The notes under the pieces were generated by a model, which saw only the letters and a list, made by a program, of their open reading frames with translations, was not told where the DNA came from and did not search any database. Source: Acidimicrobiaceae bacterium (GTDB lineage: Bacteria > Actinomycetota > Acidimicrobiia > Acidimicrobiales > Bog-793). From it: 64,000 nucleotides of DNA. The stretch lies in assembly GCA_003136185.1 (NCBI GenBank), contig PLDN01000108.1, forward strand, positions 7,312-71,311, written 5' to 3'. The position numbers and the translations under genes are program-made. Positions 31,931 through 49,148 of the stretch are shown here, piece after piece (position 1 is the first letter of the stretch; the number at the start of each line of letters is the position of its first letter).

Positions 31931-32061
31931 TCGGATGTGGCTGTCCTACTTGGACGGTGCAAACGCTGCGCGACGAGCTGGCTTGCCGATGACCCGGTGT
32001 TGTGAGTCGATGTGGAACGGTGCGCTGTTCTAGAGGCTTTCTATGCCCCCTACACCTCGCC

Positions 32062-33123
32062 TCAGGTGTTCGAGTGGCCGGCGGCCGTAGCTTCTGTCGA
32101 GGCAGGAGCGCCGAGCGGGAAGTGACAGGCCACGAAGTGGTCGGTCTTGATCTCCCGCATGATGGGCTCTTGCACCCCGCAGATCTCCTGGGCTCTCGGG
32201 CAGCGCGTCCTGTAACGGCAGCCCGAAGGAGGCGTGACCGACGAAGGCATCTCCGTCTGGGTCTCCTCCTCTTCGGCAAACGTCGTGGGCTGTGCTCCGG
32301 CACGCGATAGTGCGCGCGAAGAGATGACGCTCGCCATGAGGAGAGCGCGGGTGTAGGGGTGAGCTGGAGCCGAGTAGAGGCTCTCAGCGTCTGCCACCTC
32401 GCAGACCTTGCCGAGGAACATGACGAGAACCCGGTCGCTGACGTTCTTCACGACGGCCAGGTCGTGGGAGATGAAGATCATCGTCAGCCCGTAGCGACGC
32501 TTCATATCCTCGAGGAGGTTGAGGATCTGTGCTTGCACCGATACGTCGAGGGCGGACACGGGCTCGTCGCAGATGAGCACCCTCGGGTTGAGCATGAGGG
32601 CGCGAGCGATGGAGATCCGCTGGCACTGCCCGATGGAGAACTCATAAGGACGGCGCCATGAGACTGAGTCGTAGTCCATGTTGACTTCCGACAGCATCAA
32701 GCGCGCCCGCTGGACTCGGTCTTCGGAAGAGCCGACATCCCAGATGGCGAGCGGCTCGAGAACGAGCTCAGCCACGGTCCGCCGTGGATAGAGAGAAGAG
32801 ATGGGGTCCTGGAAGATGACCTGCATCTTCGTACGGACCTGACGCATCGCCTCAGACGTGAGCCCGGTGAGGTCGACGCCCTCGAACACGACCTTGCCGC
32901 TGGTCGGCTTCGGGAGCTGGAGGAGGGCGCGGCCAGTCGTCGACTTGCCACAGCCCGACTCACCGACGATCCCGAGAGTCTCGCCGGGCAGCACGTCGAA
33001 GCTGATGTCCGACACGGCGTGAACCTTCTGACCTCGCGGGGCGGGGAACTCTACGACGAGGTGCTCGACCCGGATGATCGATTGCTCAGCGTCCCTCAGG
33101 TGCGCAGTGCCAATACCGGCCAA
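32062..33123 (-). CDS. Peptide/nickel-type ABC transporter ATP-binding protein (OppF/DppF-like)
   Basis: [55 protein letters not shown], and a C-terminal oligopeptide-ABC domain with Cys motif [16 protein letters not shown]...ACHF. TTG 33123 lies 1 nt after the upstream stop. Confidence 0.88.
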
Positions 33124-33124
33124 C

Positions 33125-34207: not shown

Positions 34208-35190
34208 AGCACGCCTTCCCGAACGTCGAGGGTGGACCGCAGGCGGTCACCGATGAAGTTGATCGCGAGGATGAACGAGAACATCGCGACGGCGGGCGCC
34301 AGCAACAGGTTCAGGTACTGGGGCATCTGAGTCATGCCGGCAGCAATCATGTTGCCCCACGTCGGGATCGGAGGGCCGACCGACTGTCCGAGGAACGACA
34401 GGGCGCCCTCTCCGACGATCGCGAGCGCTACTCCGACGAGGCTGTAGGTGATCGCGGCGGGAACGATGTCGGGCAGGATGATCTTCAACAGGATCCGGCT
34501 TCGTTTGGATCCGAGCGCTTGTGCAGCGAGGACGTACTCGCGTTGGCTGTACTCGATGGTGGCTGCGCGCACGACCCTGAAGAGCAATGGCCACGCCACG
34601 ATGGCGATGATGAGGACGATGTCGAATTCGGAGTTCCCAAGGAAGGACACGATCACGAGGCCGAGAACGAGCGACGGGAAGGACAAGAACACCGTCGAGA
34701 CGATGCTCCACACCTCGTCGAACCATCCCCCGAAGTAACCGGCGAGCGCTCCGAGCGGGCCGCCGACCACGAAGGAGAGTGCAATCGACGCGAACCCGAC
34801 GATGAGCGAGACTCGAGAGCCGTAGATCACGCGGGACAATATGTCGCGGCCGATCGTGTCGCAGCCGAGAAGATGACTGGCGCTCGGGCCCGCGCCGGAG
34901 CCGAGGCAGTTGAAGTTGATCGTGTCTGGGTTCTGGATCGGCAACACGCCGGCGAAGATCGCGAGAAGCACCCAGATCACTGCCACGGCGACGGCAACCC
35001 AGAAGCCCCATCCAAGGCCTTGGTACCAGGCACGACCCACGGCAACGCTGTCGTCGCGGAGCGTTGGATCGGAAGCGAATATTGCAGCGCCGAGTGTCGC
35101 GGGCATCTCGAAGGGCGCCTCCGAGGTGAGATCCGTTAGGCCAAGGAGGTCCTTCGACGCGTGTGAGTCGGGATCATGTAGTTCTGGCAC
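34204..35190 (-). CDS. ABC transporter permease (OppC/DppC-like)
   Basis: HLLGCDTIGRDILSRVIYGSRVSL and the EAA-type loop AAQALGSKRSRILLKIILPD. The stop overlaps the oppD-like start by 4 nt. Confidence 0.88.
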   Translation of the reverse strand: MPELHDPDSHASKDLLGLTDLTSEAPFEMPATLGAAIFASDPTLRDDSVAVGRAWYQGLGWGFWVAVAVAVIWVLLAIFAGVLPIQNPDTINFNCLGSGAGPSASHLLGCDTIGRDILSRVIYGSRVSLIVGFASIALSFVVGGPLGALAGYFGGWFDEVWSIVSTVFLSFPSLVLGLVIVSFLGNSEFDIVLIIAIVAWPLLFRVVRAATIEYSQREYVLAAQALGSKRSRILLKIILPDIVPAAITYSLVGVALAIVGEGALSFLGQSVGPPIPTWGNMIAAGMTQMPQYLNLLLAPAVAMFSFILAINFIGDRLRSTLDVREGVL

Positions 35191-36133
35191 GGCGCACCCT
35201 TGGATCGATGACTGTGTACAGGAAATCGATGATCAAGTTCATCAAGATGTAAGCGACGGCCACGATGACCGTGATGATCTGGACCGTCGGCAGGTCGGCC
35301 TTCGTGACGGCGAGGACCAGCTGGTAGCCCAGACCGGTCAGTCCGAAGACCTGCTCCCCGATGATGGCTCCCACGATGAGCGACCCAATCTGGACGCCCC
35401 CGACGGTCATGACCGTGAAGGTCGAAGGCCGGAGGGCGTGGCGGAACAGGATCCTCCACGTCGTGAGCCCCTTCGCACGGGCCATGACGATGAAGTCCTC
35501 TTCGAGAGTGGCGATCATATCGGCGCGCAGTAGGCGCTGATAGACAGCGATCGACCCGACAGCGATCGTGAGCGACGGTAGGAACATCACGTAGAGGTTC
35601 TGAGCCGGGTTGACGCCAATCGACGGCATCGTGGATCCGGCTCCCGGGAACCAGGGCAGCTTGACCGTGAAGAAGTAGCGGAGCAGTGGTCCGACGATGA
35701 AAGCCGGCAGCGACAAAGTCGCGAAGGTTGCGGCCGTCGACATGCGGTCGAAAACTTTGTTAGGTCGCACTGCGCTGTACATAGCGAGCGGAACCGCCAC
35801 CACGATAGCGATGAGTTGGCTGAAGATTACGAGCTCGAGCGTGATCGGATACGACTGCTTGAGAAGCGTCGCAATCGGTTCCGTGGGTGCGGCGGAGAGC
35901 CCGAAGGTGCCGGAGAAGAGATTTCCGAGCCAGTGCAAGTAGCGCGGGAAGAAGGGGTGGTTCAAATAGAGAAGCGCACCTTCCTTCGCCAGACATGCTG
36001 GCCCGGCAGGCCCACAGATCACGGCGGCTTCGTTGCCGGGCAGTTTCGAAGTGAAGAAGAACGTAACGAGCGTCACGAGGACCAGCGTGACGATGATTTC
36101 GAGGACGCGCCGAACAACGACGAGCTTGGACAA
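35174..36133 (-). CDS. ABC transporter permease (OppB/DppB-like)
   Basis: N-terminal VVRRVLEIIVTLVLVTLVTFF and the EAA loop DFIVMARAKGLTTWRILFRHALRPS. 319 aa. Confidence 0.88.
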   Translation of the reverse strand: MSKLVVVRRVLEIIVTLVLVTLVTFFFTSKLPGNEAAVICGPAGPACLAKEGALLYLNHPFFPRYLHWLGNLFSGTFGLSAAPTEPIATLLKQSYPITLELVIFSQLIAIVVAVPLAMYSAVRPNKVFDRMSTAATFATLSLPAFIVGPLLRYFFTVKLPWFPGAGSTMPSIGVNPAQNLYVMFLPSLTIAVGSIAVYQRLLRADMIATLEEDFIVMARAKGLTTWRILFRHALRPSTFTVMTVGGVQIGSLIVGAIIGEQVFGLTGLGYQLVLAVTKADLPTVQIITVIVAVAYILMNLIIDFLYTVIDPRVRRARTT

Positions 36134-36277
36134 CAGAACCCCCTTTCAGCTTGCCGATGCTACTTCTTGAGCGCCGGTTCGTGCATTTCGTTGCCTTCCT
36201 CCCGAGATGGCGCTGGAATCATCTCGATTTGCCCGCGTTCTAGCGCCGTTGCTCGGCCTTTCAGGTACTACTGCTTA

Positions 36278-37975
36278 CTAGCTCTTCACCCAGACCTCGG
36301 TGGGCCAGACCGTCCCTGCCAACATCGACAAACCGCGCTTGCCCGATGGCGATGTCGGGTTGTTCCAGTTCTGGACGGCGTTGTTGGCAGCTACGTACCA
36401 GACGTCTCGCGCGTAGTAGATGTACGGCAGGTCGACGGCCAATCGCTGGTCGATCTCCTCGTAAGAGCTGAGCTGCACGTTCGGGTCCGTGGACTGCCGA
36501 GCGGCGTCTAGAGCCTTTTGGATCTTCGGGTCGATGTTGCGGGCGAAGTTGATCGGTCCAGATGTCGTTGCCCAGAAGACGTAGTTGAGGTCGGGCTGGA
36601 CGTTGGAGAACTGGCGCCAGGAGAAGACCTGGTACGTGCCAACGAGAGCGTCGGTGATCAGTGCCGCCTGCTGCACCGTCGTCACCTTGACCTTGAAGCC
36701 GGCCGCCTGCCACATCGCCTGGACGACTGAGGCATCGTAGAGCGATGTCTCAGTCGGGGTGGTCGTGTAGGTGATCGACGGCGCGTCGCCTCGGTGGTCC
36801 TTCATCCACGACGCGACGAGCGACTTCGCCTTCGAAAGGTTGTAGCTGGGATAGCCCGTCGTCGACGCGTAGGGGCTTGGCTTCGGGAAGAGCCCGTCGG
36901 TGGAGGTGATGATCTTCTGGCCGATTACGTCGATGTACTCCTTCTGGCTCGTCGCGTATGCGAGCGCCTGGCGAAGCCGTAAGTCCTTCATCGTCGGGTC
37001 GCTGCAGTTGATCATCGCGAACCCGATGTCGGGCTCGCCGACCAACAGCTCGTTGTCGCCGATCGACGTCATGTTCTTATTCGCGTCGATGAGGAGGATC
37101 GTCGGGTCGTCATCGGTGTGCATCATCTGGATATTGTTGGATTGCAGCTCGCTGTAGCGTGTCGACACGGTCGGCTGAGGCTTGAAGGTCCAGCTGTCGA
37201 GGTAAGGAAGCCCCTTGCGCCAGTAATTCTGGTTCTTCGTAAGGGTGAAGTGGCTGCCGAGTACCCAATCCTGGTATACGAAGGGCCCAGTGCCAACCGG
37301 GTGGATGTTGAACTCGGACTCGCTCTTTTTGAAGGCGGTCGGCGAGAACATGTAGGCGATCTGTCCCCCGATGTAGCCGGCCAGCCAGTAGTTGAAGGGC
37401 ACCCAGGGCGCTTCCATGTTCATCTGGATCGTGAGATCGTCGACGAGGGTGACGGCTGCCGGCGGGTTCTTTACGTCCATGTAGTTGGTGAACGCGAAGT
37501 TCGTGAGCGAGGATTTCAGGAATGCCCGCATGCAGAAGAGCATCGCTTTGCCGTCACACGGAGTGCCGTCGTGGAAGAGGACTCCGGGGCGCACCTTGAT
37601 CCGCCACTTCGTGTACGTCGAGTTGGGTGTGATCGACTCCGCAAGATATGGCTCGAGGCTGCCGTCCTCGAGGATCATCGCGAGCGGGTCGAAGACAGCG
37701 CGGGCGTAACAGACCCCGGTCTGGTCGAAGTGCGCCTGGGTCGGGTCCATCCCTGTCTCTTCGGCTTCGGTGCCGAATGCGACCGAGCCCCCAAGCGTCG
37801 GCTTGGCGTTGTTGACGCCCACGACAAGCGCCTTTTTCTTCGTAAGGGTCGTCAGCGTCGTCGCCTTGCTGCTCCCGCAGGCGTCGAGCAAAGTCCCACC
37901 AATTCCGGCGGCGCCTAAAGCTGCGCCAGCCTTAAGGCCACCTGCAAGAAACCTACGACGGTCGATGTTTGACAC
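36278..37975 (-). CDS. ABC transporter substrate-binding lipoprotein, family 5 (peptide/nickel), Tat-type signal
   Basis: GTG 37975 is preceded by AAGGGAGGGGAAG. The protein starts VSNIDRRRFLAGGLKAGAALGAAGIGGTLLDAC|GSS (twin-Arg plus lipobox). The SBP_bac_5-like body includes WRIKVRPGVLFHDGTPCDG. Confidence 0.88.
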   Translation of the reverse strand: MSNIDRRRFLAGGLKAGAALGAAGIGGTLLDACGSSKATTLTTLTKKKALVVGVNNAKPTLGGSVAFGTEAEETGMDPTQAHFDQTGVCYARAVFDPLAMILEDGSLEPYLAESITPNSTYTKWRIKVRPGVLFHDGTPCDGKAMLFCMRAFLKSSLTNFAFTNYMDVKNPPAAVTLVDDLTIQMNMEAPWVPFNYWLAGYIGGQIAYMFSPTAFKKSESEFNIHPVGTGPFVYQDWVLGSHFTLTKNQNYWRKGLPYLDSWTFKPQPTVSTRYSELQSNNIQMMHTDDDPTILLIDANKNMTSIGDNELLVGEPDIGFAMINCSDPTMKDLRLRQALAYATSQKEYIDVIGQKIITSTDGLFPKPSPYASTTGYPSYNLSKAKSLVASWMKDHRGDAPSITYTTTPTETSLYDASVVQAMWQAAGFKVKVTTVQQAALITDALVGTYQVFSWRQFSNVQPDLNYVFWATTSGPINFARNIDPKIQKALDAARQSTDPNVQLSSYEEIDQRLAVDLPYIYYARDVWYVAANNAVQNWNNPTSPSGKRGLSMLAGTVWPTEVWVKS

Positions 37976-38007
37976 GTCTTCCCCTCCCTTGGAATGTGAC
38001 AGTGATA

Positions 38008-38021
38008 TTACGCGCGCGTAA
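38008..38021. promoter_or_regulatory. 14-nt perfect palindrome in the divergent opp / GT-C promoter region
   Basis: TTACGCGCGCGTAA (alternating CG core), in the locally AT-richer 143-nt gap between start codons 37975 (-) and 38119 (+). Confidence 0.35.
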
Positions 38022-38118
38022 CTGATAGCGGGGGACCAATCGACGATTTCGTGACCTAAGTAACACACGGCGTGCGTGACCTGGCCATTCGCTGGGGGCG
38101 GAGCGGTACGATCCCCGG

Positions 38119-39720
38119 GTGCATCCGGACGAACCGCTCGCGAGCCCGGCCCGCGCCTCTTCCAAACTCCTGAAGGCCGCGGTTTGCGCGGTTCTCGTAG
38201 GGGCGGTTGCGCTGCGGTTCTTGACGAAGTCGCCCCTTTGGCTGGACGAGGCGCTCACGGTGAACATCTCCAAGGCGCCTCTCTCCCAGATCCCAGGTCT
38301 GCTCAAAGATGACGGGGCGCCCCCGCTCTACTACTTCCTTTTGCACTTTTGGATGAAGGCGTTCGGAACTGGTGACGTCGCGACGCGCTCACTCGCCGGA
38401 GTGATCGGCGTCATCAATCTTCCGATCGCTTGGCTGACCGGCTACCGCGTCGGCTCGCGATGGTGGTTGCTCGAGGAGGCTCCTCCCGAGGAACGGAAAG
38501 CTCGTGAGGCACGCGGACGTGTGACGGCCTGGTCGGTGACGCTGCTGCTCGCGAGCTCGCCTTTCGCCGTCTACTACGACACCGAAGCCCGCATGTACGG
38601 CCTGGTCCTGCTCCTCGGCACTCTCGGCGTGCTCGTGATCACGTCTCTCCTGCGTCACCCGACCTGGAGAGGTTCGCTAGCCCTTGGGGTTGTTGCGGCT
38701 GGCCTTTTGTACAGCCACTACTGGGCTCTCTACGTCTGTCTCGTGACCGGGGCGGGAGCGGTTTGGTGCGCGTGGCGAGGGCCTCACGTCAAGTCGGCCC
38801 GCTACGCCTTGGCGGGATTCGTGCTCGCGGCTGTGGCGTGGCTTCCGTGGGTACCCACATTCTTGTACCAGGTGCGGCATACCGGGACTCCTTGGGCGGC
38901 GCCCGCCGGGGCGTCGGTCATCATCTTCACTGTCACCCAGTTCGCTGGTGGCGCTTCGGCCGCCGGCAGGGCTCTCGCGCTCGTGTTCTTCTTCCTCGCC
39001 CTGCTCGCCATCTTCGGGAAGGCATACGACCGGTACCACGTGCTCTTGGATCTGCGTTCCCGACCGGGCGTGAGGGCGCTCGCTGTAACGATGATCGCGA
39101 CGCTCGTCGTTGCCATCATCGCCGGCAAGCTCTCGGGCAGCACGTTCGCAGACCGCTACACCTCGGTAATCGCCTTTCCGGCGCTGCTTGTCTTCGCATA
39201 CGGGGTGACGACACTCGAGGACCGGCGCGTCCGGACCGGCGTGCTTGCGGTCGCGGTGGCGTTGGGACTCGCCGCCTCTATCCCGAACGCGACGATTCTC
39301 CGAACCGAGGCGGGTCAGGTCGCCGCCGCGATCACGGCCGACGCCCACCCGGGAGATGTGGTGGCGTACTGCCCGGACCAGCTCGGACCGTCGGTGAGTC
39401 GCCTGCTCGGAAATGGCTACAAACAGATCACATTTCCGCGCGCTACCTCGCCGCAGATCGTCGACTGGGTCGACTACATCTCGACCGTCCAGCACGCCAG
39501 CACCTTCCGGTTCGCTCACCTTGTCGACCGGCTGTCCGGCAATCACACGATTTGGTACGTCACCGCGCCGGCTTACCAGGGTTTTGGCAACGACTGCCAA
39601 GACATCCTGATCGACCTCGCCGCGAACCACGCCGAACACAACGTCGTGGCGAGTGCCCCGGCCGACACGCCCTTCGAGATCTACGAAGGCATCTCGCTTG
39701 ACCGGTTCACGCCGCGGTGA
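38119..39720 (+). CDS. GT-C fold glycosyltransferase, ArnT/PMT (family 39/83)-like
   Basis: About 12 predicted TM helices. The first-loop motif reads SPLWLDEALTVNIS ... DDGAPPLYYFLLHFWMKAFG (PMT_2-like), followed by a C-terminal soluble domain of ~150 aa. Confidence 0.75.
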   Translation: MHPDEPLASPARASSKLLKAAVCAVLVGAVALRFLTKSPLWLDEALTVNISKAPLSQIPGLLKDDGAPPLYYFLLHFWMKAFGTGDVATRSLAGVIGVINLPIAWLTGYRVGSRWWLLEEAPPEERKAREARGRVTAWSVTLLLASSPFAVYYDTEARMYGLVLLLGTLGVLVITSLLRHPTWRGSLALGVVAAGLLYSHYWALYVCLVTGAGAVWCAWRGPHVKSARYALAGFVLAAVAWLPWVPTFLYQVRHTGTPWAAPAGASVIIFTVTQFAGGASAAGRALALVFFFLALLAIFGKAYDRYHVLLDLRSRPGVRALAVTMIATLVVAIIAGKLSGSTFADRYTSVIAFPALLVFAYGVTTLEDRRVRTGVLAVAVALGLAASIPNATILRTEAGQVAAAITADAHPGDVVAYCPDQLGPSVSRLLGNGYKQITFPRATSPQIVDWVDYISTVQHASTFRFAHLVDRLSGNHTIWYVTAPAYQGFGNDCQDILIDLAANHAEHNVVASAPADTPFEIYEGISLDRFTPR

Positions 39721-40880
39721 GCTCGTACGCCGGCACACGCAGGGGGGTCGCCGTCATCGAATCGGTGCGCGCTTCCGTCCTGCCTTTCTGTGTGTCGCGG
39801 GCGATCGTCCTCGCCGCCCTTGGGATAGCACGGTTCCTCGTCGACCAACTTGGGCCCTCGCTCAGGAGTGCAACAGGCGCGAAGGCGATCGGGACCAGCC
39901 ACTCCGGCCTGCTCTCGTGGGACGCCGCGTGGTACCTGCGCATCGCGGAAGTGGGGTACGGAGGAGCGGGGAAACAGGCGCTGCGTTTCTTTCCGTTGTT
40001 CCCGTTGCTCGGACGGCTGGTCGGGTCACTGCCCGGGATCTCCTATGGCACCGCACTGGTCGTGCTTGCAAACGTGTTCGGGTTCGGGGCGCTCGTCCTC
40101 CTGCACGCACTCGTATCTCGCGAGTCGCTCGGGCACGAGACGGCGGAACGGTCGATCTGGATCCTCTCGCTCTGGCCGGCTGCGTTCGTCCTCGTGATGG
40201 GCTACGCCGAGTCCCTGTTGCTTTGCCTCACGATCGCTGCTTTCTTGTGCTGGCGGACGGGCCGCTGGTGGTGGTCGATCGTGCCGGCGTACTTCGCCGG
40301 CCTCTGCAGACCAGTCGGCGTCCTGCTGGCGCTCCCGGCTCTCGTAGAGGCGGTCAGCTGGTGGCGCTCGAGTGGCCATCGCTCGCTCGGTTCGGCGTCG
40401 AGCCGTTTGCTGGCGATCGCGGCGGCACCAGCCGGCATGGTGACCTACCTTGCCTGGTCGGCGGCGACGCACGGCAGCTTCTTCGAACCACTGAGCGAGC
40501 AGACCTCCCGTCTCCATCGTGGCGGGATCAGCGACCCGATAGCGACCTTGCTGCACGACACGAGCGACCTCGTGCACGGCCACCATCTCGGAACCGCCCT
40601 TCACGCCCCGTTTGCAGCTCTGTTCGTCATCCTCACCATCTACCTCTTCTTCAGGCTGCCGGCGGCGTACGGCCTATATGCCGCAGCCACGATGGCCGTA
40701 GCGCTCACCGCTCCCAACCTCGACTCGCTCGAGCGCTACGGCCTTGCCTGCTTCCCACTTGCCATCGCGGCGGGGTGCCTGACGGAGCGCCCAATGGTGC
40801 AGCGAGTGGTGCTGAGCGGCATGGGTGCCCTCCTCACCGCGTACGCGCTCCTTGCCTTCCTCGGGTTGTACGTCCCTTGA
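39717..40880 (+). CDS. Polytopic mannosyltransferase-like membrane protein (PIG-V / Mannosyl_trans2-like)
   Basis: GTG overlaps the upstream stop (GTGA). Signature SGLLSWDAAWYLRIAEVGYGG...ALRFFPLFPLLGR, followed by ~8 TM helices. Confidence 0.65.
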   Translation: MSSYAGTRRGVAVIESVRASVLPFCVSRAIVLAALGIARFLVDQLGPSLRSATGAKAIGTSHSGLLSWDAAWYLRIAEVGYGGAGKQALRFFPLFPLLGRLVGSLPGISYGTALVVLANVFGFGALVLLHALVSRESLGHETAERSIWILSLWPAAFVLVMGYAESLLLCLTIAAFLCWRTGRWWWSIVPAYFAGLCRPVGVLLALPALVEAVSWWRSSGHRSLGSASSRLLAIAAAPAGMVTYLAWSAATHGSFFEPLSEQTSRLHRGGISDPIATLLHDTSDLVHGHHLGTALHAPFAALFVILTIYLFFRLPAAYGLYAAATMAVALTAPNLDSLERYGLACFPLAIAAGCLTERPMVQRVVLSGMGALLTAYALLAFLGLYVP

Positions 40881-40925
40881 CCCGCAACGTCGATGAACCG
40901 CGGAGCGAGCGTGAAGTGAAAGAAT

Positions 40926-42431
40926 GTGGTCATGGCAGCGGCTTCTGACGACTCGCGCGCGCCCGAGAACGTCGTTGTAATCGGCGCCGGCCCGGCGGGC
41001 CTTACCGCTGCGTACGCTCTCGGTCGCCGGGGCGGCCACTGCATCGTCGTTGAGGCGGACACGGTCGTTGGTGGAATCTCGCGTACAGCCGAGCGGGAGG
41101 GATGGCGGTTCGACATCGGCGGGCACCGTTTCTTCACCAAGGTCCGCGAGGTCGAGGAGCTGTGGCACGAGATCCTCGGACCGGAGGATTTCCTCCTCCG
41201 TCCGCGCCTCAGCCGGATATACCACGACGGGAAGTTCTTCGACTACCCGATCCAGCTCGGGAACGCGGTGAAGGGACTCGGTCTGGTCGAGTCGTTCAAG
41301 TGCGGGGTCTCGTACGTCTGGGTCCGCATCAAGCGTCCGAAGAACACCGACACCTTCGAGGGATGGGTCGCGTCCAGGTTCGGTTGGCGGCTCTACAACA
41401 AGTTCTTCAAGACCTACACCGAGAAGGTCTGGGGAGTCCCTGCGACGGAGATCCAGGCTGACTGGGCGGCGCAGCGGATCAAGAACCTCTCCCTCTGGAA
41501 GGCCGTGTTGAACGCGGTAACCCCGCACAAGAAGACGAACGTCACGTCGCTCATCGAGGAGTTCGAGTACCCGAAGCTCGGTCCAGGGATGATGTGGGAG
41601 CGCGCTACCGAGCTCGTGCTCGACCAGGGCTCGGAGGTCCGGATGTCAACGTGGGTGACGCGTATCCGGCGGGAGCCCGGCCGGGCGGTCGCGGTCGACC
41701 TCGAGTCACCTGGCGGTGTCTGCTCGGAGCTTCCGGTCGATCACGTTGTCTCGTCCATGCCCCTCGCCGAGCTCGCCCTCATCCTCGACCCGCCGGCGCC
41801 GGAGGACGTCCAGCAAGCCGCCAAGGGCCTCCACTTCCGGGACTTCCTGACGGTCGCGCTCGTAGTGCCGAAGGACCGGGGCTTTCCCGACAACTGGATC
41901 TACGTGCACGACAAAGTGAAGCTCGGTCGCATTCAGAACTTCGGTTCGTGGTCACCGGAGATGGTGAAGGACGGACGGACCTGCCTCGGTCTCGAGTACT
42001 TCGTCTTCGAAGGCGACGAACTGTGGACGATGGAGGACCAAGATCTGGTCGCTCTCGGCAAACGCGAGCTCTCCGCTATCGGGCTCGTGCGCGAAGAAGA
42101 CGTCGAGATGGGCTTCGTCGTGCGGATGCCGAAGGCGTACCCGGTCTACGACGAGGGCTACGCCACACGCGTCGAGACGATCCGCGGCTTCCTCGCGGAC
42201 GAGGTGCCGAACGTACACCCGGTGGGGCGTAACGGGATGCACCGTTACAACAACCAGGACCACTCGATGCTCACAGCGCTGCTCACCGTCGAGAACCTGT
42301 TCGGTGAGGACTACGACACCTGGTCGGTCAACGTCGAAGCGGATTATCACGAAGAGCAGGTAGGGCGAAAGGGAGAAGCGCAGAGGGTGGGCACTGGGCG
42401 CTCGGCCCCGGTGGCGCCAACCAAGGCGTGA
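40926..42431 (+). CDS. FAD-dependent oxidoreductase (amine-oxidase / UDP-galactopyranose-mutase-like fold)
   Basis: Dinucleotide motif VVVIGAGPAGLTAAYAL...VVEADTVVGG, IGGHRFFTK, and C-terminal HPVGRNGMHRYNNQDHSMLTAL. Confidence 0.75.
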   Translation: MVMAAASDDSRAPENVVVIGAGPAGLTAAYALGRRGGHCIVVEADTVVGGISRTAEREGWRFDIGGHRFFTKVREVEELWHEILGPEDFLLRPRLSRIYHDGKFFDYPIQLGNAVKGLGLVESFKCGVSYVWVRIKRPKNTDTFEGWVASRFGWRLYNKFFKTYTEKVWGVPATEIQADWAAQRIKNLSLWKAVLNAVTPHKKTNVTSLIEEFEYPKLGPGMMWERATELVLDQGSEVRMSTWVTRIRREPGRAVAVDLESPGGVCSELPVDHVVSSMPLAELALILDPPAPEDVQQAAKGLHFRDFLTVALVVPKDRGFPDNWIYVHDKVKLGRIQNFGSWSPEMVKDGRTCLGLEYFVFEGDELWTMEDQDLVALGKRELSAIGLVREEDVEMGFVVRMPKAYPVYDEGYATRVETIRGFLADEVPNVHPVGRNGMHRYNNQDHSMLTALLTVENLFGEDYDTWSVNVEADYHEEQVGRKGEAQRVGTGRSAPVAPTKA

Positions 42432-43621
42432 GCACTCCGGACCTACAAACAGCCGCGGCCCTTGCCGAGGAGGCCGGGCTCCGCCGTGTGGCGATGATCG
42501 CCTGGCGGGATCTCGGTGACGCAGAGGCCGGCGGATCGGAGCTCCACGCTCACGAGATTGCTCGCCGGTGGGCACAGGCAGGCATCGAGGTGGTCATGCG
42601 AACCTCGTCGGTCGCAGGCGAGCCAGAGCGGCTAGAGCGCGACGGCTATACGGCCGTGCGAAGATCCGGTCGGTATCAGGTCTTCGGGACGGGTCCCTAC
42701 GACATCGTGCGCGGTCGGCTCGGCGCGCTCGACGGGCTGGTCGAGATCTGGAACGGGATGCCGTTCTTCAGCCCGGTCTGGGGGCGCTTCGGCGTACCGC
42801 TCCCGCGAGTCACGTGGCTGCACCACGTCCACGCCGAGATGTGGCAGATGGTGCTCGGCCCGCGGCTCGCCGCCATCGGCGACACGATCGAGTCGAAGAT
42901 CGCGCCTCGCATCTACAGGCGCACCCGCATCGTGACGCTGTCGGAGTCCTCTCGCTGCGAGATCGTCGCGATGCTCGGCATGAGGCCGAGCCGGGTGAGT
43001 GTCGTACAGCCTGGGATCGACCCGAGCTACTCGCCCGGCTCAGAGAAGAGCCCGACACCTCTTATCGTCGCAGTGGGGCGCCTCGTGCCGGTCAAGCGCT
43101 TCGATCGGCTGATCAGGGGAGTGGCCGACATGCACGAGCGCCGCAGCGACGTCGAATGCCTGATCGTCGGGGAGGGAGCCGAGCGAGATGGCCTCGAGAG
43201 GCTCCGCCACGAGCTCGGCGCCGACTCCTACATCCATCTCCCCGGCCGCTTGGCCTCGGCCGACCTGGTCGACTCCTACAGGCGGGCCTGGGTGGTTGCG
43301 TCCACGTCGGTGCGAGAGGGCTGGGGGATGACGGTCAGCGAAGCCGCCGCGTGTGGCACGCCCGCTGTCGCGAGCCGAATCGCGGGGCACCGCGATGTCG
43401 TGATCGAGGGCCAGACTGGGTTCCTTGCGAGCACCCGGGCCGAGATGGTGAGGCATCTCGAGGCGATCGTCTCGGACGAGGGCCTCCGTGAGAGGCTGGC
43501 GAAGGCAGCCCTCGATCGTGCCGCCGACCTGAGCTGGGAAGCGACGGCCGCTGGCACGCTCACTACGCTCGTCGACGAAGCGACACGGGTCGGGTCAGGT
43601 TGGCAACGAACACGGAGATGA
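42428..43621 (+). CDS. Glycosyltransferase family 4 (GT-B)
   Basis: GTGA overlap with the upstream stop. VGRLVPVKRFDRLI, GEGAERDGLERL, and the E-x7-E region REGWGMTVSEAAACGTPAVAS. Confidence 0.85.
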   Translation: MSTPDLQTAAALAEEAGLRRVAMIAWRDLGDAEAGGSELHAHEIARRWAQAGIEVVMRTSSVAGEPERLERDGYTAVRRSGRYQVFGTGPYDIVRGRLGALDGLVEIWNGMPFFSPVWGRFGVPLPRVTWLHHVHAEMWQMVLGPRLAAIGDTIESKIAPRIYRRTRIVTLSESSRCEIVAMLGMRPSRVSVVQPGIDPSYSPGSEKSPTPLIVAVGRLVPVKRFDRLIRGVADMHERRSDVECLIVGEGAERDGLERLRHELGADSYIHLPGRLASADLVDSYRRAWVVASTSVREGWGMTVSEAAACGTPAVASRIAGHRDVVIEGQTGFLASTRAEMVRHLEAIVSDEGLRERLAKAALDRAADLSWEATAAGTLTTLVDEATRVGSGWQRTRR

Positions 43622-45639
43622 GTGTCAGAGGGCGGCACCTTCCCGGCCTCGACGGGGTCCGCGCTCTCGCGATCGGTGGAGTCTTCGCGTACCACCTCGG
43701 CTTCGGCTGGGCCTCGGGCGGCTATCTAGGCGTCGACCTCTTCTTCGTGCTGTCCGGGTTCCTCATCTCGAGCCTGCTCGTGGAGGAGTGGCTGGAGAAG
43801 TCGACGATTGGTCTGGCGGCGTTCTGGGGACGCCGTGCGCGCCGCCTGCTTCCTGGACTGCTGTTGATGCTGGCCGTCCTCGGGGTGTTCCTCCTCGCGT
43901 TCGGCCCCGGGCCGCTCGTCGATCTTCGCGAGGTGCGCGACGACGCGCTCGCCACAGTGCTGTATGTGGCGAACTGGCATCAGCTCTTTGCGCACCAGTC
44001 CTACTTCGACCAATACGCGGCGCCTTCGCCTCTCCAGCACACGTGGTCGCTCGGGATCGAGGAGCAGTTCTACGTCGTCTGGCCGCTCGTGATGCTCGGC
44101 CTGCTCTCGCTTGGTCGTGGGAGGTGGCGCGCCGTCGGCTTGGCCGTCGCCGGCGCAGGAGCCGCTGCGTCGGCCGGGTGGATGGCCTTCTTGGCGGCAC
44201 ACGGCGCGTCGGTCAACCGCCTGTACTACGGCTCCGACACGCGCGCGTTCGACCTGTTGATCGGCGCCTTGCTCGCATTCGCGGTTGCGGGCCGTGCGCA
44301 GCCGGGCGAGCGTTCCCGGCGCCTCCTCTCGGTCGCCGCACCGGCCGCCCTCGTCGGCCTCGGCCTGTTCTGGTGGCGTGCGGGGAGCCTCGCGGGTGCA
44401 AACGGGCGACACATGTTCGAGTGGGGCTTCCTGCTTTGCGCGTGCGCGGCGGCGGTCATCCTCGCAGACGTCCGCCAGGAGACACTCTCGCCGCTCGGGA
44501 AGATACTGGCGATCCGGCCGCTCCAGTTCATCGGGCAGATCTCTTATGAGCTGTACCTATGGCACTGGCCAGTCATTTGTGAGTTGACATCTGCGAGGCT
44601 CGGCATCAGCGGCCTCCTCCTCGATCTCGTGCAGGTGGCAGTGGCTCTGACACTGGCGGTGGTGAGCTTCTTCCTCGTCGACCGGCCGCTCCGCAGGTGG
44701 TCCTTCCAGGGCTGGCCGAGACCGGTCCGGGTGCTGACCGCACCGGTTGGGATGGTTGCCGCTGCGGTGGTCATGGTGATCGCGACGGTTCCCGGCCCGA
44801 TCGTGAAGGCCCCGGTCGTGAAGGACGTGAAGACGAGGGGCCCGGGAATACCGGGCGCCGGCAACATGGTCGGAGGACCTATCCACCTGGCTGAGACCCC
44901 CACGCGGGCGCACCCGTTGCGCATCATCTTGTTCGGGGACTCGGTCATGCGCGGCGACGCCCCCGCCATCACGGCCGCGCTGCAATCGACCGGGGTGGTC
45001 CAGGTGGTCGACGCGGGCTTCGACGCCTGGGGTTTCACGACGGACAAGAGCTGGCGACAGAACGTGCCCAGCCAGATCCGAGCTCACCACGCCCAGCTCG
45101 TGATCGCGATGTGGAGCTGGGACGACGACTTCCTTGTGGGCCACTCCGCCGAATACCGGAGTTGGATGAAGCAGTTCGTGCGCATAGTGACGGACCAGGT
45201 CGGCGTCGACGGCCTCATCTTTCAAGAGTTCCCGCAAATTGGACCACCGAGCAGCGACATCCCCATCAACGCGTGGAACGAGCTCGTCGCCTCGATCGTC
45301 TCGGTCGCCCCTGGAAAGGTCATGTACCTTCCGCTCGGGGCTTCGGTCGAGCGAGAGGGCCATTTCGAGTCCTGGCTCCCGACCGGCGATGACTGGAAGC
45401 TCCCGACAGACGACTGGGTGCGCGTCCGGTCGGTCGACTCTGTGCACTTCTGCCCGCCCGGCGCTGCTCGCTATGCCGCCGCGCTGGTATCTGACCTGAC
45501 GGCGATGTACCACTTGCCGAAGACGGCGCCGGGTTGGTCGTCGGCCTCGTGGACGCAGGGACCCGACTATGAGCAACCGCCGGGGAACTGCCCGGACGAT
45601 CACCCGCCCGACGCGGCGGCGGTTAGCGTACGCGGCTGA
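43618..45639 (+). CDS. Acyltransferase-3 (OafA-type) membrane domain fused to a C-terminal SGNH hydrolase-like domain
   Basis: ATGA overlap with the upstream stop. LPGLDGVRALAIGGVFAYHLG...GYLGVDLFFVLSGFLIS and about 10 TM helices. The extracytoplasmic part carries the block-I-like RIILFGDSVMRGD. Confidence 0.85.
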   Translation: MSVRGRHLPGLDGVRALAIGGVFAYHLGFGWASGGYLGVDLFFVLSGFLISSLLVEEWLEKSTIGLAAFWGRRARRLLPGLLLMLAVLGVFLLAFGPGPLVDLREVRDDALATVLYVANWHQLFAHQSYFDQYAAPSPLQHTWSLGIEEQFYVVWPLVMLGLLSLGRGRWRAVGLAVAGAGAAASAGWMAFLAAHGASVNRLYYGSDTRAFDLLIGALLAFAVAGRAQPGERSRRLLSVAAPAALVGLGLFWWRAGSLAGANGRHMFEWGFLLCACAAAVILADVRQETLSPLGKILAIRPLQFIGQISYELYLWHWPVICELTSARLGISGLLLDLVQVAVALTLAVVSFFLVDRPLRRWSFQGWPRPVRVLTAPVGMVAAAVVMVIATVPGPIVKAPVVKDVKTRGPGIPGAGNMVGGPIHLAETPTRAHPLRIILFGDSVMRGDAPAITAALQSTGVVQVVDAGFDAWGFTTDKSWRQNVPSQIRAHHAQLVIAMWSWDDDFLVGHSAEYRSWMKQFVRIVTDQVGVDGLIFQEFPQIGPPSSDIPINAWNELVASIVSVAPGKVMYLPLGASVEREGHFESWLPTGDDWKLPTDDWVRVRSVDSVHFCPPGAARYAAALVSDLTAMYHLPKTAPGWSSASWTQGPDYEQPPGNCPDDHPPDAAAVSVRG

Positions 45640-45640
45640 C

Positions 45641-46261
45641 GTGATTGCGATTGGGCTCACCGGCGGAATCGGCTCCGGCAAATCGACAGTGGCCTCGATG
45701 CTCGTCGAGCGCGGAGCCGTGCTGATCGACGCAGACGTGTTGGCGCGCGAGGTGGTCGAGCCCGGGCGGGAGGCGTTCGGCAAGGTGCGGTCGCGTTTCG
45801 GCGACGACGTACTCGCAGCCGACGGATCCCTCGACCGCGCAGCGTTGGCGGCGATCGTCTTCGCCGACGCGGCGGCGCGGGCTGACCTGAACGCGATCGT
45901 CCATCCCGAGGTCGGGCGGGAGATGCTGGAGCGCCTCGCACAAGAGGCGGACACCGATCACATCGTGATCCTCGACATTCCCCTTCTGGCAGAGGGCGGG
46001 CGTGACCGCTACCGGGTTGCAGGGGTGCTCGTCGTCGACTGCCCTCTCGAGCTCGCGATCGAGAGATTGGTTACCCAGCGGGAGATGAGCCGGAACGATG
46101 CTGAGCGGCGAGCCGCCGCGCAGATCTCTCGTGAGGAGCGACTTCGTGTTGCCGACTTCATCATCATGAACATGGGGAGCATCGAAGAGCTGGCGGAGAT
46201 GGTGCGCCGGGCGTGGGAGTGGATCGAGTCTTTGAGGGCGGAGGCGGCTGCGACGTCTTGA
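45641..46261 (+). CDS. coaE: Dephospho-CoA kinase
   Basis: GTG lies 2 nt after the upstream stop. VIAIGLTGGIGSGKSTVASML, IDADVLAREVVEPG, VLVVDCP. 206 aa. Confidence 0.9.
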   Translation: MIAIGLTGGIGSGKSTVASMLVERGAVLIDADVLAREVVEPGREAFGKVRSRFGDDVLAADGSLDRAALAAIVFADAAARADLNAIVHPEVGREMLERLAQEADTDHIVILDIPLLAEGGRDRYRVAGVLVVDCPLELAIERLVTQREMSRNDAERRAAAQISREERLRVADFIIMNMGSIEELAEMVRRAWEWIESLRAEAAATS

Positions 46262-46322
46262 GAGCACGTTCGGTAGCGGTCTTGACCGCGCGCGTTGCCT
46301 CTGCGGGTCGCTAAGACCAATA

Positions 46323-47000
46323 ATGCAGGCGATGGGATCGGGCCAGTCATCGAAGGACGGTCGCGCGGGCAGCTCGTCGGCGCAGAGCGCCGCTTGGTCC
46401 GCCTGGCTTGCGAACTCCGTGTGGTACGCCACGTCGACCCGTCCGGGAGCAAAGGGTGAAGGGGTACCTGGTCCCGGCACAGATTTCGGTCCCGGATCGA
46501 CGGTCCGGGCGTCTGACGCAGAGCGATCCCAAGTGATCGACTCTCTGTCGCAGCACTTCGGGGAGGGGCGCCTTGACCAAGAGGAGCTAGACGACCGGCT
46601 GCAGCGCGCCATGTCGGCCAAGACGCGGGGCGACCTGGTGCCGCTGCTGATCGACCTGCCGACGCCACACGCCGACGCCTCGCTGAGGACGCCATCGGTG
46701 CGCCAGCGGGTGCGGAGACAGCTCGCCGGCCTGTCAGCAGCCGTCTCGGTGTTAGTCGTCCTCGCGGTCGTATGGCTGGTATTAGCCCCCGCCCATGGGG
46801 CAAAGGGGTGGGCGATCCTTTTCTTCCTCGCGGCGGCGTACCTCCTCCGCCGCTACAGCAAGATCCGGCGCCGCCGTCTCCGTCACGAGCACCTCCATGA
46901 GCATGGCACGACGCACTGGCACGGCCCGAACGGACGGGTGCGAGCGGAGTTCGACGTTCGTCGCCTCGGCTCGAGGTCCGGTCCGCACGACCACCGATGA
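46323..47000 (+). CDS. DUF1707 (SHOCT-like) domain membrane protein
   Basis: RASDAERSQVIDSLSQHFGEGRLDQEELDDRLQRAMSAKTRGDLVPLLIDLP, followed by two hydrophobic helices and a His/Arg-rich tail. The start is uncertain. Confidence 0.65.
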   Translation: MQAMGSGQSSKDGRAGSSSAQSAAWSAWLANSVWYATSTRPGAKGEGVPGPGTDFGPGSTVRASDAERSQVIDSLSQHFGEGRLDQEELDDRLQRAMSAKTRGDLVPLLIDLPTPHADASLRTPSVRQRVRRQLAGLSAAVSVLVVLAVVWLVLAPAHGAKGWAILFFLAAAYLLRRYSKIRRRRLRHEHLHEHGTTHWHGPNGRVRAEFDVRRLGSRSGPHDHR

Positions 47001-47057
47001 CCAGGTCATCTCTGGGCAGAGACGTCAACGCGCACCCTGTCGGTACCATCGAAACGA

Positions 47058-49148
47058 ATGCCTCCGTTTCGAGTAGTCAGTGACTTCACACCCGCCGGTG
47101 ACCAACCGGCCGCAATTGCCGCGCTCTCTGCCGGGATCCAGCGAGGAGATCGCTTCCAGACGCTGCTCGGGATAACCGGCAGCGGTAAGAGCGCGACGGT
47201 CGCGTGGACCATCGAGCAGGTCCAGCGCCCCACTCTCGTTCTCGCGCCGAACAAGTCCCTGGCGGCGCAGCTGGCGGGAGAGCTGCGGGGCTTCTTCCCC
47301 GAGAACCGGGTCGAGTACTTCGTGTCCTACTACGACTACTACCAGCCGGAGGCCTATCTCCCCTCGTCGGACACCTATATCGAGAAGGACTCCTCGATCA
47401 ACGACGAGATCGATCGGCTGCGCCACTCGACGACAGCGAGCCTTTTGACAAGGCGCGACGTCATCGTCGTTGCCTCCGTCTCGTGCATCTACGGGCTCGG
47501 ATCACCGGAGGAGTACCGCGACCGGATCATCGTGATGCACCCCGGCGAGCTGCACGATCAGCGGTCGATCCTGACCCGGCTCGTCGATCTTCGTTACGAG
47601 CGCAACGACCAGAACCTCGTCCGGGGCAAGTTCCGAGTCCGCGGGGACACGATCGAGGTCCATCCGGCTTACGAGGAGTACGCAGTACGGATCGAGCTCT
47701 ACGGGGACGATGTCGAGCGAGTCACCCGTTTCGACGTGATGACAGGCGAGATACTTGGCGAGCTCGACGAGCTCGTGATCTTCCCAGCGACTCACTACGT
47801 CGCAGGCGACGAGCGGACCCGGAAGGCGATCGAGTCCATCGAGGCGGAGCTCCGCGTGCGCCTTCCCGAGCTCGAGGCAGGCGGCAAGATGCTCGAGGCC
47901 CAGCGCCTCAGGATGCGGACCGAGTACGACCTCGAGATGTTGGCGGAGGTCGGTAGCTGCAGCGGCATCGAGAACTACAGCCGACATCTCGACGGCCGGA
48001 GTGCCGGAGAGCCGCCTTACACACTGCTCGATTATTTTCCCGAGGACTGGCTGCTCGTGATCGACGAGAGCCACGTGACGGTGCCGCAGTTGCACGGGCA
48101 GTTCGAGGGCGACCGGTCACGCAAGGAGGTCCTCGTCGAGCACGGGTTCCGCCTGCCGTCCGCGATGGACAACCGGCCGTTGCGCTTCAAGGAGCTCGAG
48201 ACCCGGCTCAACCAGGTGATCTTCATGTCGGCAACTCCCGCCCAATATGAGCTGACGATCTCCGACCAGGTAGTCGAGCAGATCGTCCGCCCGACGGGCC
48301 TTGTCGACCCTGAGGTGGTGGTGAAGCCCACGAAGGGCCAGATCGACGACCTGATAGCAGAGATCCAGAAGACGACCGCACGGGGCGAGCGCGTCCTCGT
48401 CACGACGCTCACGAAGAAGATGGCAGAGGACCTGAGTGACTACCTGCTCGAATCCGGGCTGCGGGTCCGTTACTTGCACTCGAACATCGACACGATCGAG
48501 CGCATCGAGATCGTGCGTGACCTTCGCCTCGGTGAGTTCGACGTGCTGGTCGGGATCAACCTCTTGCGGGAGGGTCTCGACCTTCCCGAGGTCTCGCTCG
48601 TGGCGATCCTCGACGCCGACAAGGAGGGATTCTTGCGGTCGACGACGTCGCTCATCCAGACGATGGGCCGGGCCGCGAGGAACGTCTCGGGCAACGTTGT
48701 GCTGTACGCGGATGTCATCACCGATTCGATGCGGCGGGCGATGGCCGAGACGGAACGTCGCCGTACCGTTCAGCGCGCCTACAACGCCGAGCACGGGATC
48801 GACCCTCAGACGATCCAGAAGGCTGTGACGGACCTCGTGGCGCAGTTCCGGAGTGCCTCGGGGGCGTCTCATAGCGAGGACGGCTCACCGCTCCCGTCGA
48901 GGGTCGGCTCCGACCGTTCGCGCAGAGCCGGGCGCCGGGCGGCGGAGCGGATCGCGGCCACGATGGGAGCGTCGAGTGGGCGGGGCGGCGACGGCTCGGG
49001 AGAGTTGCCTGCGGACGAGCTCGAGCGGCTCATCGACACGCTCGAAGCCGAGATGCAGACGGCCGCCACCGAATTGCGCTTCGAGTACGCTGCCCGGCTT
49101 CGCGACGAGATCCGCTCGCTGCGAAGAGAGCTTCGAGAGGTCGGCTGA
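47058..49148 (+). CDS. uvrB: Excinuclease ABC subunit B
   Basis: [76 protein letters not shown], and the C-terminal UVR motif. Confidence 0.95.

Follow-up and report, generated by a model that had tools for sequence, protein, structure and literature searches.

A candidate envelope-glycan operon built around a UDP-galactopyranose mutase-like flavoenzyme in an Acidimicrobiaceae bacterium

What does a bacterium build with a mutase-like flavoenzyme that is encoded between membrane glycosyltransferases? The question is raised by five adjoining genes in a stretch of 64,000 nucleotides (nt) from an Acidimicrobiaceae bacterium (assembly GCA_003136185.1, contig PLDN01000108.1, positions 7,312 to 71,311), which is referred to here as the window. 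The central protein is a homolog of UDP-galactopyranose mutases (UGMs), and its partners are two polytopic enzymes of the GT-C glycosyltransferase fold, a cytoplasmic glycosyltransferase of family GT4 and an acyltransferase. On balance, the five genes probably constitute an envelope-glycan assembly operon in which the flavoenzyme feeds a GT-C pathway dependent on lipid-linked sugars. Their products are as follows:

38119-39720, forward strand: GT-C1, an ArnT/PMT_2-like polytopic glycosyltransferase of 533 amino acids (aa) with a C-terminal extracytoplasmic alpha/beta domain, assigned by fold and homologs
39717-40880, forward strand: PIG-V/Mannosyl_trans2-like, membrane-only GT-C of 387 aa, assigned by PF04188 and fold
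40926-42431, forward strand: UGM-type flavoenzyme of 501 aa (499 aa from the ATG at 40932), a candidate nucleoside diphosphate (NDP)-sugar pyranose/furanose mutase, predicted to be cytoplasmic
42428-43621, forward strand: cytoplasmic GT4 (GT-B, retaining family) of 397 aa, translationally coupled to the flavoenzyme (PF00534, E 2.6e-33; PF13439, E 1.7e-10)
43618-45639, forward strand: AT3 membrane acyltransferase with an SGNH-type (DUF459) domain, 673 aa (PF01757, E 4e-23; PF04311, E 3.9e-10)

A preliminary description of this DNA had called the third protein Glf-like, and PDB searches and landmark residues agree: the flavoenzyme groups with UGMs and not with amine or phytoene oxidases. Hydrophobicity analysis reveals no transmembrane (TM) segment. 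Its best PDB relative is the UGM of Aspergillus fumigatus (AfUGM), found at E 2e-23 with the single sequence and at 2e-31 with a profile of 23 family sequences; that of Trypanosoma cruzi (TcUGM) comes next (1.2e-23, profile positions 21-471), and bacterial UGMs are found at about 1e-12. Like the eukaryotic-type UGMs (A. fumigatus UgmA and T. cruzi UGM; 3ute, 3uka, 4dsg), to which it is homologous over nearly the full length, the flavoenzyme comprises about 500 aa and possesses a GGH loop, both catalytic arginines, a phosphate-binding tyrosine pair and an R-x5-Y...NQDH motif. Unlike them, it is bacterial and archaeal, has a two-residue deletion before the position of N457, and is tied genetically to GT-Cs instead of Golgi- or GT2-type galactofuranosyltransferases.

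The FAD-binding Rossmann motif GxGxxG is present (PF13450, E 6.5e-13), with G20, G22 and G25 invariant. Among 23 landmark residues of AfUGM, 19 are identical in the flavoenzyme and almost all of these are invariant in the family alignment: G65, G66, H67, F70, Y107, Q110, F160, Y164, W169, R184, W324, Y326, R335, Y405, R435, Y441, N443, Q444 and H446. AfUGM residues G61, G62, H63, R182, R327, Y419, R447, Y453, N457, W167, W315 and Y317 are all kept, without variation in the 23 family members over which invariance was scored. The T. cruzi equivalents of H63 (TcUGM H62), R182, R327, Y419, R447, Y453 and N457 are catalytic or phosphate-holding residues (PMC4192007). In the flavoenzyme, the flavin histidine loop is G65-G66-H67 (AfUGM G61-G62-H63; TcUGM H62), the catalytic arginines R182 and R327 and the flavin-near R447 correspond to R184, R335 and R435, and the tyrosine pair at the UDP beta-phosphate (AfUGM Y419 and Y453; TcUGM Y395 and Y429) corresponds to Y405 and Y441; all are invariant. 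The numbering is validated, as all landmarks coincide with residues of the type expected. For some AfUGM residues outside the T. cruzi study, the roles assigned here follow the structural literature. Since the catalytic residues are conserved, we infer mutase activity for this family.

The two GT-Cs required comparison of folds, since sequence and profile searches of the PDB returned nothing at E <= 1 except chance antibody matches. GT-C1 itself matches no Pfam or NCBIfam model; 13 of its 29 homologs match PMT_2 (PF13231, best E 1.1e-12). It has at least nine hydrophobic segments, and a W41-L-D43-E44 motif is invariant in 29 sequences, its acidic pair standing directly after the first TM segment (model helix 10-34), presumably in the first extracytoplasmic loop. 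The AlphaFold2 (AF2) model of GT-C1 (predicted local distance difference test, pLDDT, 84.6) is matched best by ArnT in Foldseek (5f15, E 7e-6, TM-score 0.52), followed in order by STT3, ALG9, Pmt4 and PglB. In the PIG-V-like protein, PF04188 is matched at E 8.4e-8 (32.4 bits, cutoff 22.4) over profile positions 50-202 of 443 only, W68-D69 is invariant in 31 sequences, and the AF2 model (pLDDT 91.5) retrieves STT3, AftA, ArnT, ALG9 and GPI mannosyltransferase I. No sequence relationship between the two GT-Cs was detected with hhalign.

These properties of GT-C1 also bear on protein O-glycosylation as an alternative function, by which GT-C1 would act like a Pmt on secreted proteins while the second GT-C and the acyltransferase elaborate the glycan. 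Homologs of GT-C1 match PF13231 and bear the names GT39 or mannosyltransferase, the invariant Asp-Glu pair is as in PMT loop 1, and Pmt4 is among the structural matches. However, the best of these matches is ArnT and not a PMT, neither a PMT (PF02366) nor a MIR-type domain is matched, and the AftD-like, AftA-like and TagF-like partners found in relatives, described below, point to polysaccharide or lipoglycan targets. Protein O-glycosylation is therefore improbable.

The GT4 has MshA as its nearest solved relative (E 2e-21), ahead of PimB' (2e-10) and PimA (1e-6). It is not MshA, given a score of 110 bits against the TIGR03449 cutoff of 462.5; all NCBIfam equivalog models score far below their cutoffs, and the protein is no ortholog of MshA, PimA or PimB'. 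The C-terminal domain of the acyltransferase carries the SGNH blocks FGDSV (GDS) and DSVH (DxxH), and the protein is a predicted candidate for an extracytoplasmic glycan O-acyltransferase. It shares with the OafA/OafB-type enzymes and SucT an AT3 domain with R...H and VDxFFxxSG motifs that a TM segment connects to a GDS/DxxH SGNH-type domain, and differs from them in that its C-terminal domain belongs to PF04311 (DUF459). SucT is its best NCBIfam match, but identity with SucT was rejected, as the score is 118 bits where the cutoff (NF058601) is 1275 and the AT3 half alone aligns. All five family assignments made earlier (ArnT/PMT-like GT-C, PIG-V-like protein, Glf-like flavoenzyme, GT4 and AT3-SGNH acyltransferase) hold. 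Apart from coaE, no protein of the cluster reaches the equivalog threshold of a characterised enzyme.

Are these genes a single operon? The boundaries given for the five open reading frames (ORFs) were exact, and their third-position GC content (GC3) of 0.80-0.85 is as for real genes in a sequence of 65-68% GC. Direct reading of the sequence also bears out the junctions and the translational coupling drawn from them: a GTGA overlap at 39717-39720 joins GT-C1 to the PIG-V-like gene, another at 42428-42431 joins the flavoenzyme to the GT4, and an ATGA overlap at 43618-43621, which a GGAG precedes by 4 nt, joins the GT4 to the acyltransferase. The gap ahead of the flavoenzyme is 45 nt to the GTG at 40926, or 51 nt to the ATG at 40932, which is the start used by the 499-aa relatives. 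The acyltransferase stop codon TGA (45637-45639) is followed by one base and then by the GTG of coaE at 45641 (VIAIGLTGGIGSGKS), so the spacing is 1 nt and not the 2 nt first reported. All six genes lie on the same strand with overlapping or near-abutting junctions, as expected of a single operon, and no terminator-like sites beyond shuffled expectation occur within the cluster; the junctions are kept in close relatives (L083-L085). Two further elements adjoin the five genes:

45641-46261, forward strand: coaE, dephospho-CoA kinase of 206 aa, the length also found in relatives (PF01121, E 1.4e-60)
37976-38118, no strand: divergent intergenic region of about 143 nt between the gene for an opp-type substrate-binding protein (SBP) lipoprotein (reverse strand) and GT-C1; candidate promoter region

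The promoter of the operon probably lies in the second of these. The SBP start was reassigned to the GTG at 37975, which provides a twin-arginine translocation (Tat) signal and a lipobox (VSNIDRRRFLAGG...LLDAC) and agrees with relatives in which the protein has 565 aa and the gap 141 nt. A sigma-70 scan found no site in 37976-38118, and the promoter and terminator scan was uninformative; the sole sigma-70-like match in 37800-47200 is at 46295-46324, just ahead of a DUF1707 gene.

How much of this arrangement is conserved? Relatives were gathered by a flavoenzyme scan of one genome per GTDB species, which gave at least 595, and the best 80 loci were analysed; they come from Acidimicrobiales, Micromonospora, Actinomadura, Geodermatophilus, Protofrankia, Kitasatospora, Mycobacteriales, metagenome-assembled genomes (MAGs) of Bifidobacteriaceae and one Gemmatimonadota MAG. 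In close relatives, with GT-C1 identities of 98% and 81%, the same five genes and coaE occur with the same overlaps, which is more than chance. The full five-gene set was seen in close relatives only; the unit conserved across 82 loci is the flavoenzyme plus a GT-C, with or without the PIG-V-like GT-C, the GT4 or an AftD-like GT-C. Distant Acidimicrobiales keep the chromosomal slot, in the order polA, rpsA, opp genes (reverse strand), cluster, coaE, uvrB. The PIG-V-like gene is sometimes absent there or extra membrane proteins are present, and in most Acidimicrobiales loci examined the place of the AT3-SGNH gene is filled by an AftD-like GT-C gene (1400-1600 aa) on the opposite strand. In these AftD-bearing relatives coaE lies about 200 nt past the oppositely oriented AftD gene and is parted from the cluster by this gene and the intergenic gap, so that its coupling in the window is incidental and lineage-specific. 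coaE is accordingly rejected as a functional member of the cluster and is probably transcribed by read-through from the operon. A phosphodiester glycosidase-type (NAGPA-like) lipoprotein encoded at 30174-31292, put forward earlier as a trimming or turnover partner, is rejected as well: it lies in an insertion, is missing at that position from the 98% and 81% relatives, and is missing from every other locus.

Neighborhood counts were made with iterated hidden Markov models (HMMs) within 7 kb of the flavoenzyme in the 82 loci, on gene calls from a GC3-filtered ORF caller that misses genes in a few loci (for instance L042 and L061). A PMT_2-like GT-C was found in 43 of the 82 loci, a PIG-V-like GT-C in 28, an AftD-like GT-C in 18, a GT4 in 14, a small GT2 resembling PpgS and dolichol-phosphate mannose synthase (DPMS) in 13, and an AT3 homolog in 10. 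At least one of the three GT-C families is present in at least 59 of the 82. In 46 of 71 loci, with many different gene orders and orientations, the immediate neighbor of the flavoenzyme belongs to one of these families, and an independent Pfam census of immediate neighbors places PMT_2 as the top family on both sides.

The small GT2 points to the lipid-carrier step. It stands beside the flavoenzyme in 19 loci by tblastn and is closest to PpgS, dolichol phosphate-hexose transferases, AglJ, ArnC and DPMS, all with scores below equivalog cutoffs. One example is L036, where the order is PIG-V-like gene, AftD-like gene, flavoenzyme and, after 31 nt, GT2. The AftD-like neighbors (PF11847, 1400-1600 aa) contain F5/8-type C domain and CBM_AftD modules. 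Another example is Actinomadura hibisca NBRC 15177 (L016:6201-17129), in which an AftA_N GT-C (PF12250, E 7.6e-17) follows the flavoenzyme directly and the pair is bracketed by two TagF-like proteins of about 1200 aa, each combining a GT2 with a CDP-glycerol glycerophosphotransferase. The flavoenzyme family is thereby connected, in a strain that can be cultured, with a locus for a teichoic-acid-type polymer. AftD and AftA are transferases of lipid-linked furanoses in mycobacteria.

Two other features of these loci may be recorded here. Paralogous AftD-like genes, encoding about 1400-1550 aa each, flank the flavoenzyme in an Acidimicrobiales MAG (L036:4456-21215) and in an Iamiaceae MAG (L052:1298-11479); the former also contains one more PMT_2 GT-C besides a PIG-V-like gene and a PpgS-like GT2. 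In addition, eight Acidimicrobiales loci, including L053:11505-13100, L020:13062-14660, L027:13084-15288 and L078:11503-12924, encode a protein here called c9 at a site between flavoenzyme and GT4; it is about 530 aa long and has 11-13 hydrophobic segments. It has no Pfam or NCBIfam match, shows no sequence relationship to GT-C1 by hhalign, is missing from the window, and is a candidate flippase, polymerase or further GT-C.

Natural fusions provide a second line of evidence. About one sixth of the top 150 flavoenzyme homologs exceed 600 aa. In a Phycisphaera sp. the flavoenzyme is joined to a GT2 and a PMT_2 GT-C (RNC81890.1, 1438 aa, with an independent copy of 1409 aa); its GT2 matches the PpgS-like HMM at 2.7e-23, and the RLDEA motif of its GT-C resembles the WLDEA of GT-C1. 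Flavoenzyme plus GT2 is found in P0368, and GT4 plus flavoenzyme in two members (P0489 and P0515), one of them on a 568-kb contig. Six members carry a GFO/IDH/MocA oxidoreductase domain before the flavoenzyme. In Sphingomonadales the fusion partner is a UDP-glucuronate decarboxylase, that is, a UDP-xylose synthase (UXS), whose N-terminal domain matches human UXS1 (PDB 4gll) with E 2e-103, GalE reaching 2e-38; over the flavoenzyme part, identity with the window protein is 53%. A Promethearchaeota (Asgard) MAG encodes a flavoenzyme fused to LPG_synthase_TM, an MprF-flippase-like domain (P0500, GAB4305232.1), and other members carry polytopic regions of 8-12 TM segments that have no Pfam match. 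Four proteins of 612-679 aa (P0372, P0389, P0404 and P0444) end in a C-terminal tail of about 120 aa with 2-4 hydrophobic helices, whose motifs VGG.AT..D...L and N[YF]..sR.fVF are possibly GtrA-like. Together, these fusions tie the family to a nucleotide-sugar substrate, to GT2 and GT4 partners, to GT-C consumers and to membrane-embedded, possibly flippase-like domains. As side observations, P0500 gives a weak match to PF03275 (GLF) and shows that the family reaches the archaea, and P0362 and P0373 have a different two-helix tail.

The pathway that we favor would run in four steps. First, the reduced flavoenzyme would convert a nucleotide sugar, hexose or pentose, between its pyranose and furanose states in the cytoplasm. 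The furanose would then be used by the coupled GT4 at the inner face of the membrane, where it would build or prime a lipid-anchored acceptor, and/or a PpgS/DPMS-like GT2 would attach it to polyprenyl phosphate for flipping; this GT2 and the flippase are missing from the window, whereas in relatives they adjoin the flavoenzyme or are joined to it. In a third step, the two unrelated GT-Cs, ArnT/PMT_2-like and PIG-V-like, would transfer lipid-linked sugars to a lipoglycan, a wall polysaccharide or a glycoprotein. Finally, the AT3-SGNH enzyme would O-acylate the product. Gene anatomy, family assignments, conserved catalytic residues, genomic co-occurrence and domain fusions are observed facts in this scheme; the mutase activity, the kind of sugar, the lipid-linked intermediate and the acceptor are inferred. 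An enzyme set covering four such steps had been proposed for the cluster from the outset; the family calls sustain that proposal in part, and the polyprenyl-phosphate GT2 and the flippase are absent both from the cluster and from the 64-kb window. No GT4 enzyme is known to supply polyprenyl-phosphate sugar donors.

Several observations weigh against this pathway, the first of them in the flavoenzyme itself. The sugar-contacting asparagine of UGMs (AfUGM N207; TcUGM N201) is replaced by an invariant S208, N163 by T165 and Y334 by W342, also invariant; with F106, which is I109 here, these are the four landmark exceptions, and they cluster at the sugar and ribose pocket. The curated UGM models fail too, TIGR00031 scoring 34.9 bits against a cutoff of 303.75 and PF03275 (GLF) giving no match. 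The altered pocket may reflect a substrate other than UDP-galactose, or chemistry other than that of a mutase, and the GFO/IDH/MocA fusion would also fit a redox role. The protein is thus best described as a predicted UGM-type mutase whose sugar may well not be galactose; it was not filed as Glf, since both the curated thresholds and the sugar-contacting asparagine fail.

If the sugar is not galactose, what might it be? A pentose, xylose or arabinose, is a serious candidate on the strength of the divergent pocket and of one close homolog that is fused to a UDP-xylose synthase and carries the same S/T/W pocket signature as the window protein. UXS-like genes lie near the flavoenzyme in one of 87 sequences searched (L025), and for this reason the pentose idea draws on the fusion and not on neighborhood.

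A redox role deserves separate consideration. The flavoenzyme would then be an ordinary oxidase or desaturase, of the amine oxidase, protoporphyrinogen oxidase (PPO), CrtI or DprE1 type, in a coincidental context or in an oxidation or epimerisation step. The Pfam match is to Amino_oxidase, relatives are labelled protoporphyrinogen oxidase by JGI, and the oxidoreductase fusion and the unmet UGM thresholds are in keeping with such a role. Against it, amine oxidases, PPO and CrtI match mainly the dinucleotide-binding N-terminus of about 70-90 residues, with a weak additional C-terminal match for Bacillus subtilis PPO, and the UGM-specific residues (GGH loop, two arginines, two tyrosines and NQDH) are invariant. 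The UDP-xylose synthase fusion indicates a nucleotide-sugar substrate, and adjacency to GT-Cs holds in many gene orders. An ordinary redox enzyme is accordingly very unlikely, and identity with PPO, HpnE, CrtI or an amine oxidase was rejected, as their matches lie mainly in the N-terminal Rossmann part.

The remaining counter-evidence concerns the lipid carrier. The genome scan contributes the 80 loci that match the query best, and since these are phylogenetically linked, the locus counts do not represent independent events, a weakness mitigated by the range of gene orders and by the fusions across phyla. By PDB comparison, the GT2 domain of the Phycisphaera fusion is a generic GT2. The window encodes no polyprenyl-phosphate GT2, no flippase and no AftD, and c9 is not there either; the evidence for the lipid-linked branch therefore comes from relatives. 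A weak GT2-HMM match at 56088-57362 proved to be a methyltransferase.

These absences give room to another scheme, in which the NDP-furanose is used by the GT4 alone to make a lipid-anchored primer and the GT-Cs extend it with an ordinary donor such as polyprenyl-phosphate mannose, so that no lipid-linked furanose arises. The stop codon of the flavoenzyme overlaps the start of the GT4, fusions of GT4 and flavoenzyme exist, the window has no dedicated polyprenyl-phosphate GT2, and a GT4 followed by GT-Cs is the standard actinobacterial layout known from phosphatidylinositol mannosides, lipomannan and lipoarabinomannan (PIM/LM/LAM). However, a GT4 was counted in 14 of the 82 loci and a GT-C in at least 59, and most loci have a GT-C without a GT4. 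The triple fusion of flavoenzyme, GT2 and GT-C and the PpgS-like GT2 placed 31 nt downstream in L036 argue for a lipid-carrier route, and the AftD- and AftA-type partners belong to furanosyltransferase families. The GT4-only scheme is the main alternative; we judge it rather doubtful, but it keeps substantial weight because the lipid-carrier branch requires a GT2 and a flippase from elsewhere in the genome.

Does the favored lipid-linked pathway reproduce a known one? PpgS (GT2) and Rv3779 (GT-C) place galactosamine on arabinogalactan, and ArnC and ArnT place 4-amino-4-deoxy-L-arabinose on lipid A. In both pairs a nucleotide sugar is converted to a lipid-phosphate sugar, flipped and used by a GT-C, which is the logic proposed here. 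The likeness extends to the proteins: relatives carry, beside or fused to the flavoenzyme, a GT2 whose nearest counterparts are PpgS, ArnC and DPMS, and the nearest fold to GT-C1 is ArnT. The present system differs in its upstream mutase-like flavoenzyme, in having at least two different GT-Cs per locus and in the lack of the GT2 from the window. The PIM/LM/LAM pathway, in which PimA and PimB' (GT4) are followed by PimE, MptA and MptB (GT-C), likewise combines a cytoplasmic GT4 with several extracytoplasmic GT-Cs; the GT4 of the window resembles MshA more closely than it does the Pim enzymes and stays below all cutoffs, and no GT87 protein is encoded in the window.

The AftD/AftA systems of Corynebacteriales, which depend on decaprenyl-phosphate-arabinofuranose (DPA), come close in another way, as AftD-like and AftA_N proteins adjoin the flavoenzyme in relatives; the window itself has neither, and no DprE1, DprE2 or UbiA was seen in the annotated loci. 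The cluster could on this ground be taken for the Acidimicrobiales ortholog of the mycobacterial arabinogalactan/LAM machinery (Glf-GlfT, Emb/Aft and the DPA pathway). In favor of this are the AftD-like GT-Cs at the same locus in most Acidimicrobiales loci examined, the SucT model as best match of the AT3 gene, and the AftD homologs outside Corynebacteriales, one Acidimicrobiales species included, that have been reported as sequence homologs only (bioRxiv 10.1101/2019.12.22.885152). Such orthology is nevertheless extremely unlikely: no Emb, GlfT2, DprE1/E2 or UbiA homolog was seen in the window or the annotated neighborhoods, the flavoenzyme is not a canonical Glf, neither the SucT nor the MshA model comes near its cutoff, and AftD is missing from the window.

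The earlier statement that the cluster matches no characterised pathway stands, as no characterised ortholog was found in NCBIfam or the literature. The flavoenzyme belongs to NCBIfam NF005548 (750 bits), one of five PRK07208-derived models (NF005545-NF005549) that all bear the name "hypothetical protein". No paper on the family was found in a literature search that covered subscription journals thinly, so that an earlier characterisation is possible. The family is large, an exhaustive phmmer search at E <= 1e-30 returning 2130 representatives of clusters at 50% identity, yet its NCBI name says nothing of function. The locus probably specifies an uncharacterised envelope-glycan pathway that is built from known enzyme folds around a new mutase subfamily.

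A bolder proposal extends to the whole family. NF005548 might be a new class of nucleotide-sugar mutases, possibly acting on a UDP-pentose (UDP-xylopyranose to UDP-xylofuranose, or UDP-L-arabinose), whose product would be loaded onto lipid by a PpgS-like GT2 and flipped, independently of DprE1 and UbiA, and would feed ArnT-, PIG-V-, AftD- and AftA-like GT-Cs across Actinomycetota and other phyla. We regard this as possible but speculative, and rather unlikely in so complete a form. The co-occurrences and fusions nonetheless offer testable hypotheses on three points: a mutase activity new for sugar nucleotides, another route by which lipid-linked furanose donors could arise, and a role for AftD and AftA homologs in actinobacteria that have no arabinogalactan. 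Were the UDP-pentose reading true, it would supply a donor for AftD homologs outside the mycolata and might account for the xylose and arabinose that are diagnostic wall sugars of Micromonosporaceae. Tests are practical, as the family occurs in the culturable genera Micromonospora, Actinomadura, Geodermatophilus, Kitasatospora and Protofrankia; identity of the flavoenzyme with its Micromonospora and Actinomadura homologs is 62-66%.

The rest of the window is housekeeping, with pheT, fab genes, polA, rpsA, coaE, uvrB, uvrA, uvrC, rapZ and gap-pgk-tpi. Homologs of the encoded proteins place the bacterium in Acidimicrobiales. Divergent from GT-C1, an Opp/Dpp-type ABC transporter operon occupies 32062-37975 on the reverse strand and encodes two ATPases, two permeases and the SBP_bac_5 lipoprotein with Tat signal and lipobox; its adjacency to the cluster is repeated in many Acidimicrobiales loci and may reflect coupling or plain synteny. 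The DUF1707 (SHOCT-like) protein gene at 46323-47000, between coaE and uvrB, is kept in close relatives. The DNA that separates rpsA from the opp-type operon (27525-32060, about 4.5 kb) looks like a variable island. It holds an ORF of 457 aa (28740-30113, TTG start, no Pfam match) and the NAGPA-like gene; it is missing from the 81% relative, in which rpsA abuts the opp operon, and in the 98% relative an RHS/YD-repeat gene stands there. Finally, the polA ORF at 22657-25812 encodes 1051 aa with the 5'-3' exonuclease domain beginning at residue 120, which suggests either an N-terminal extension or a later true start.

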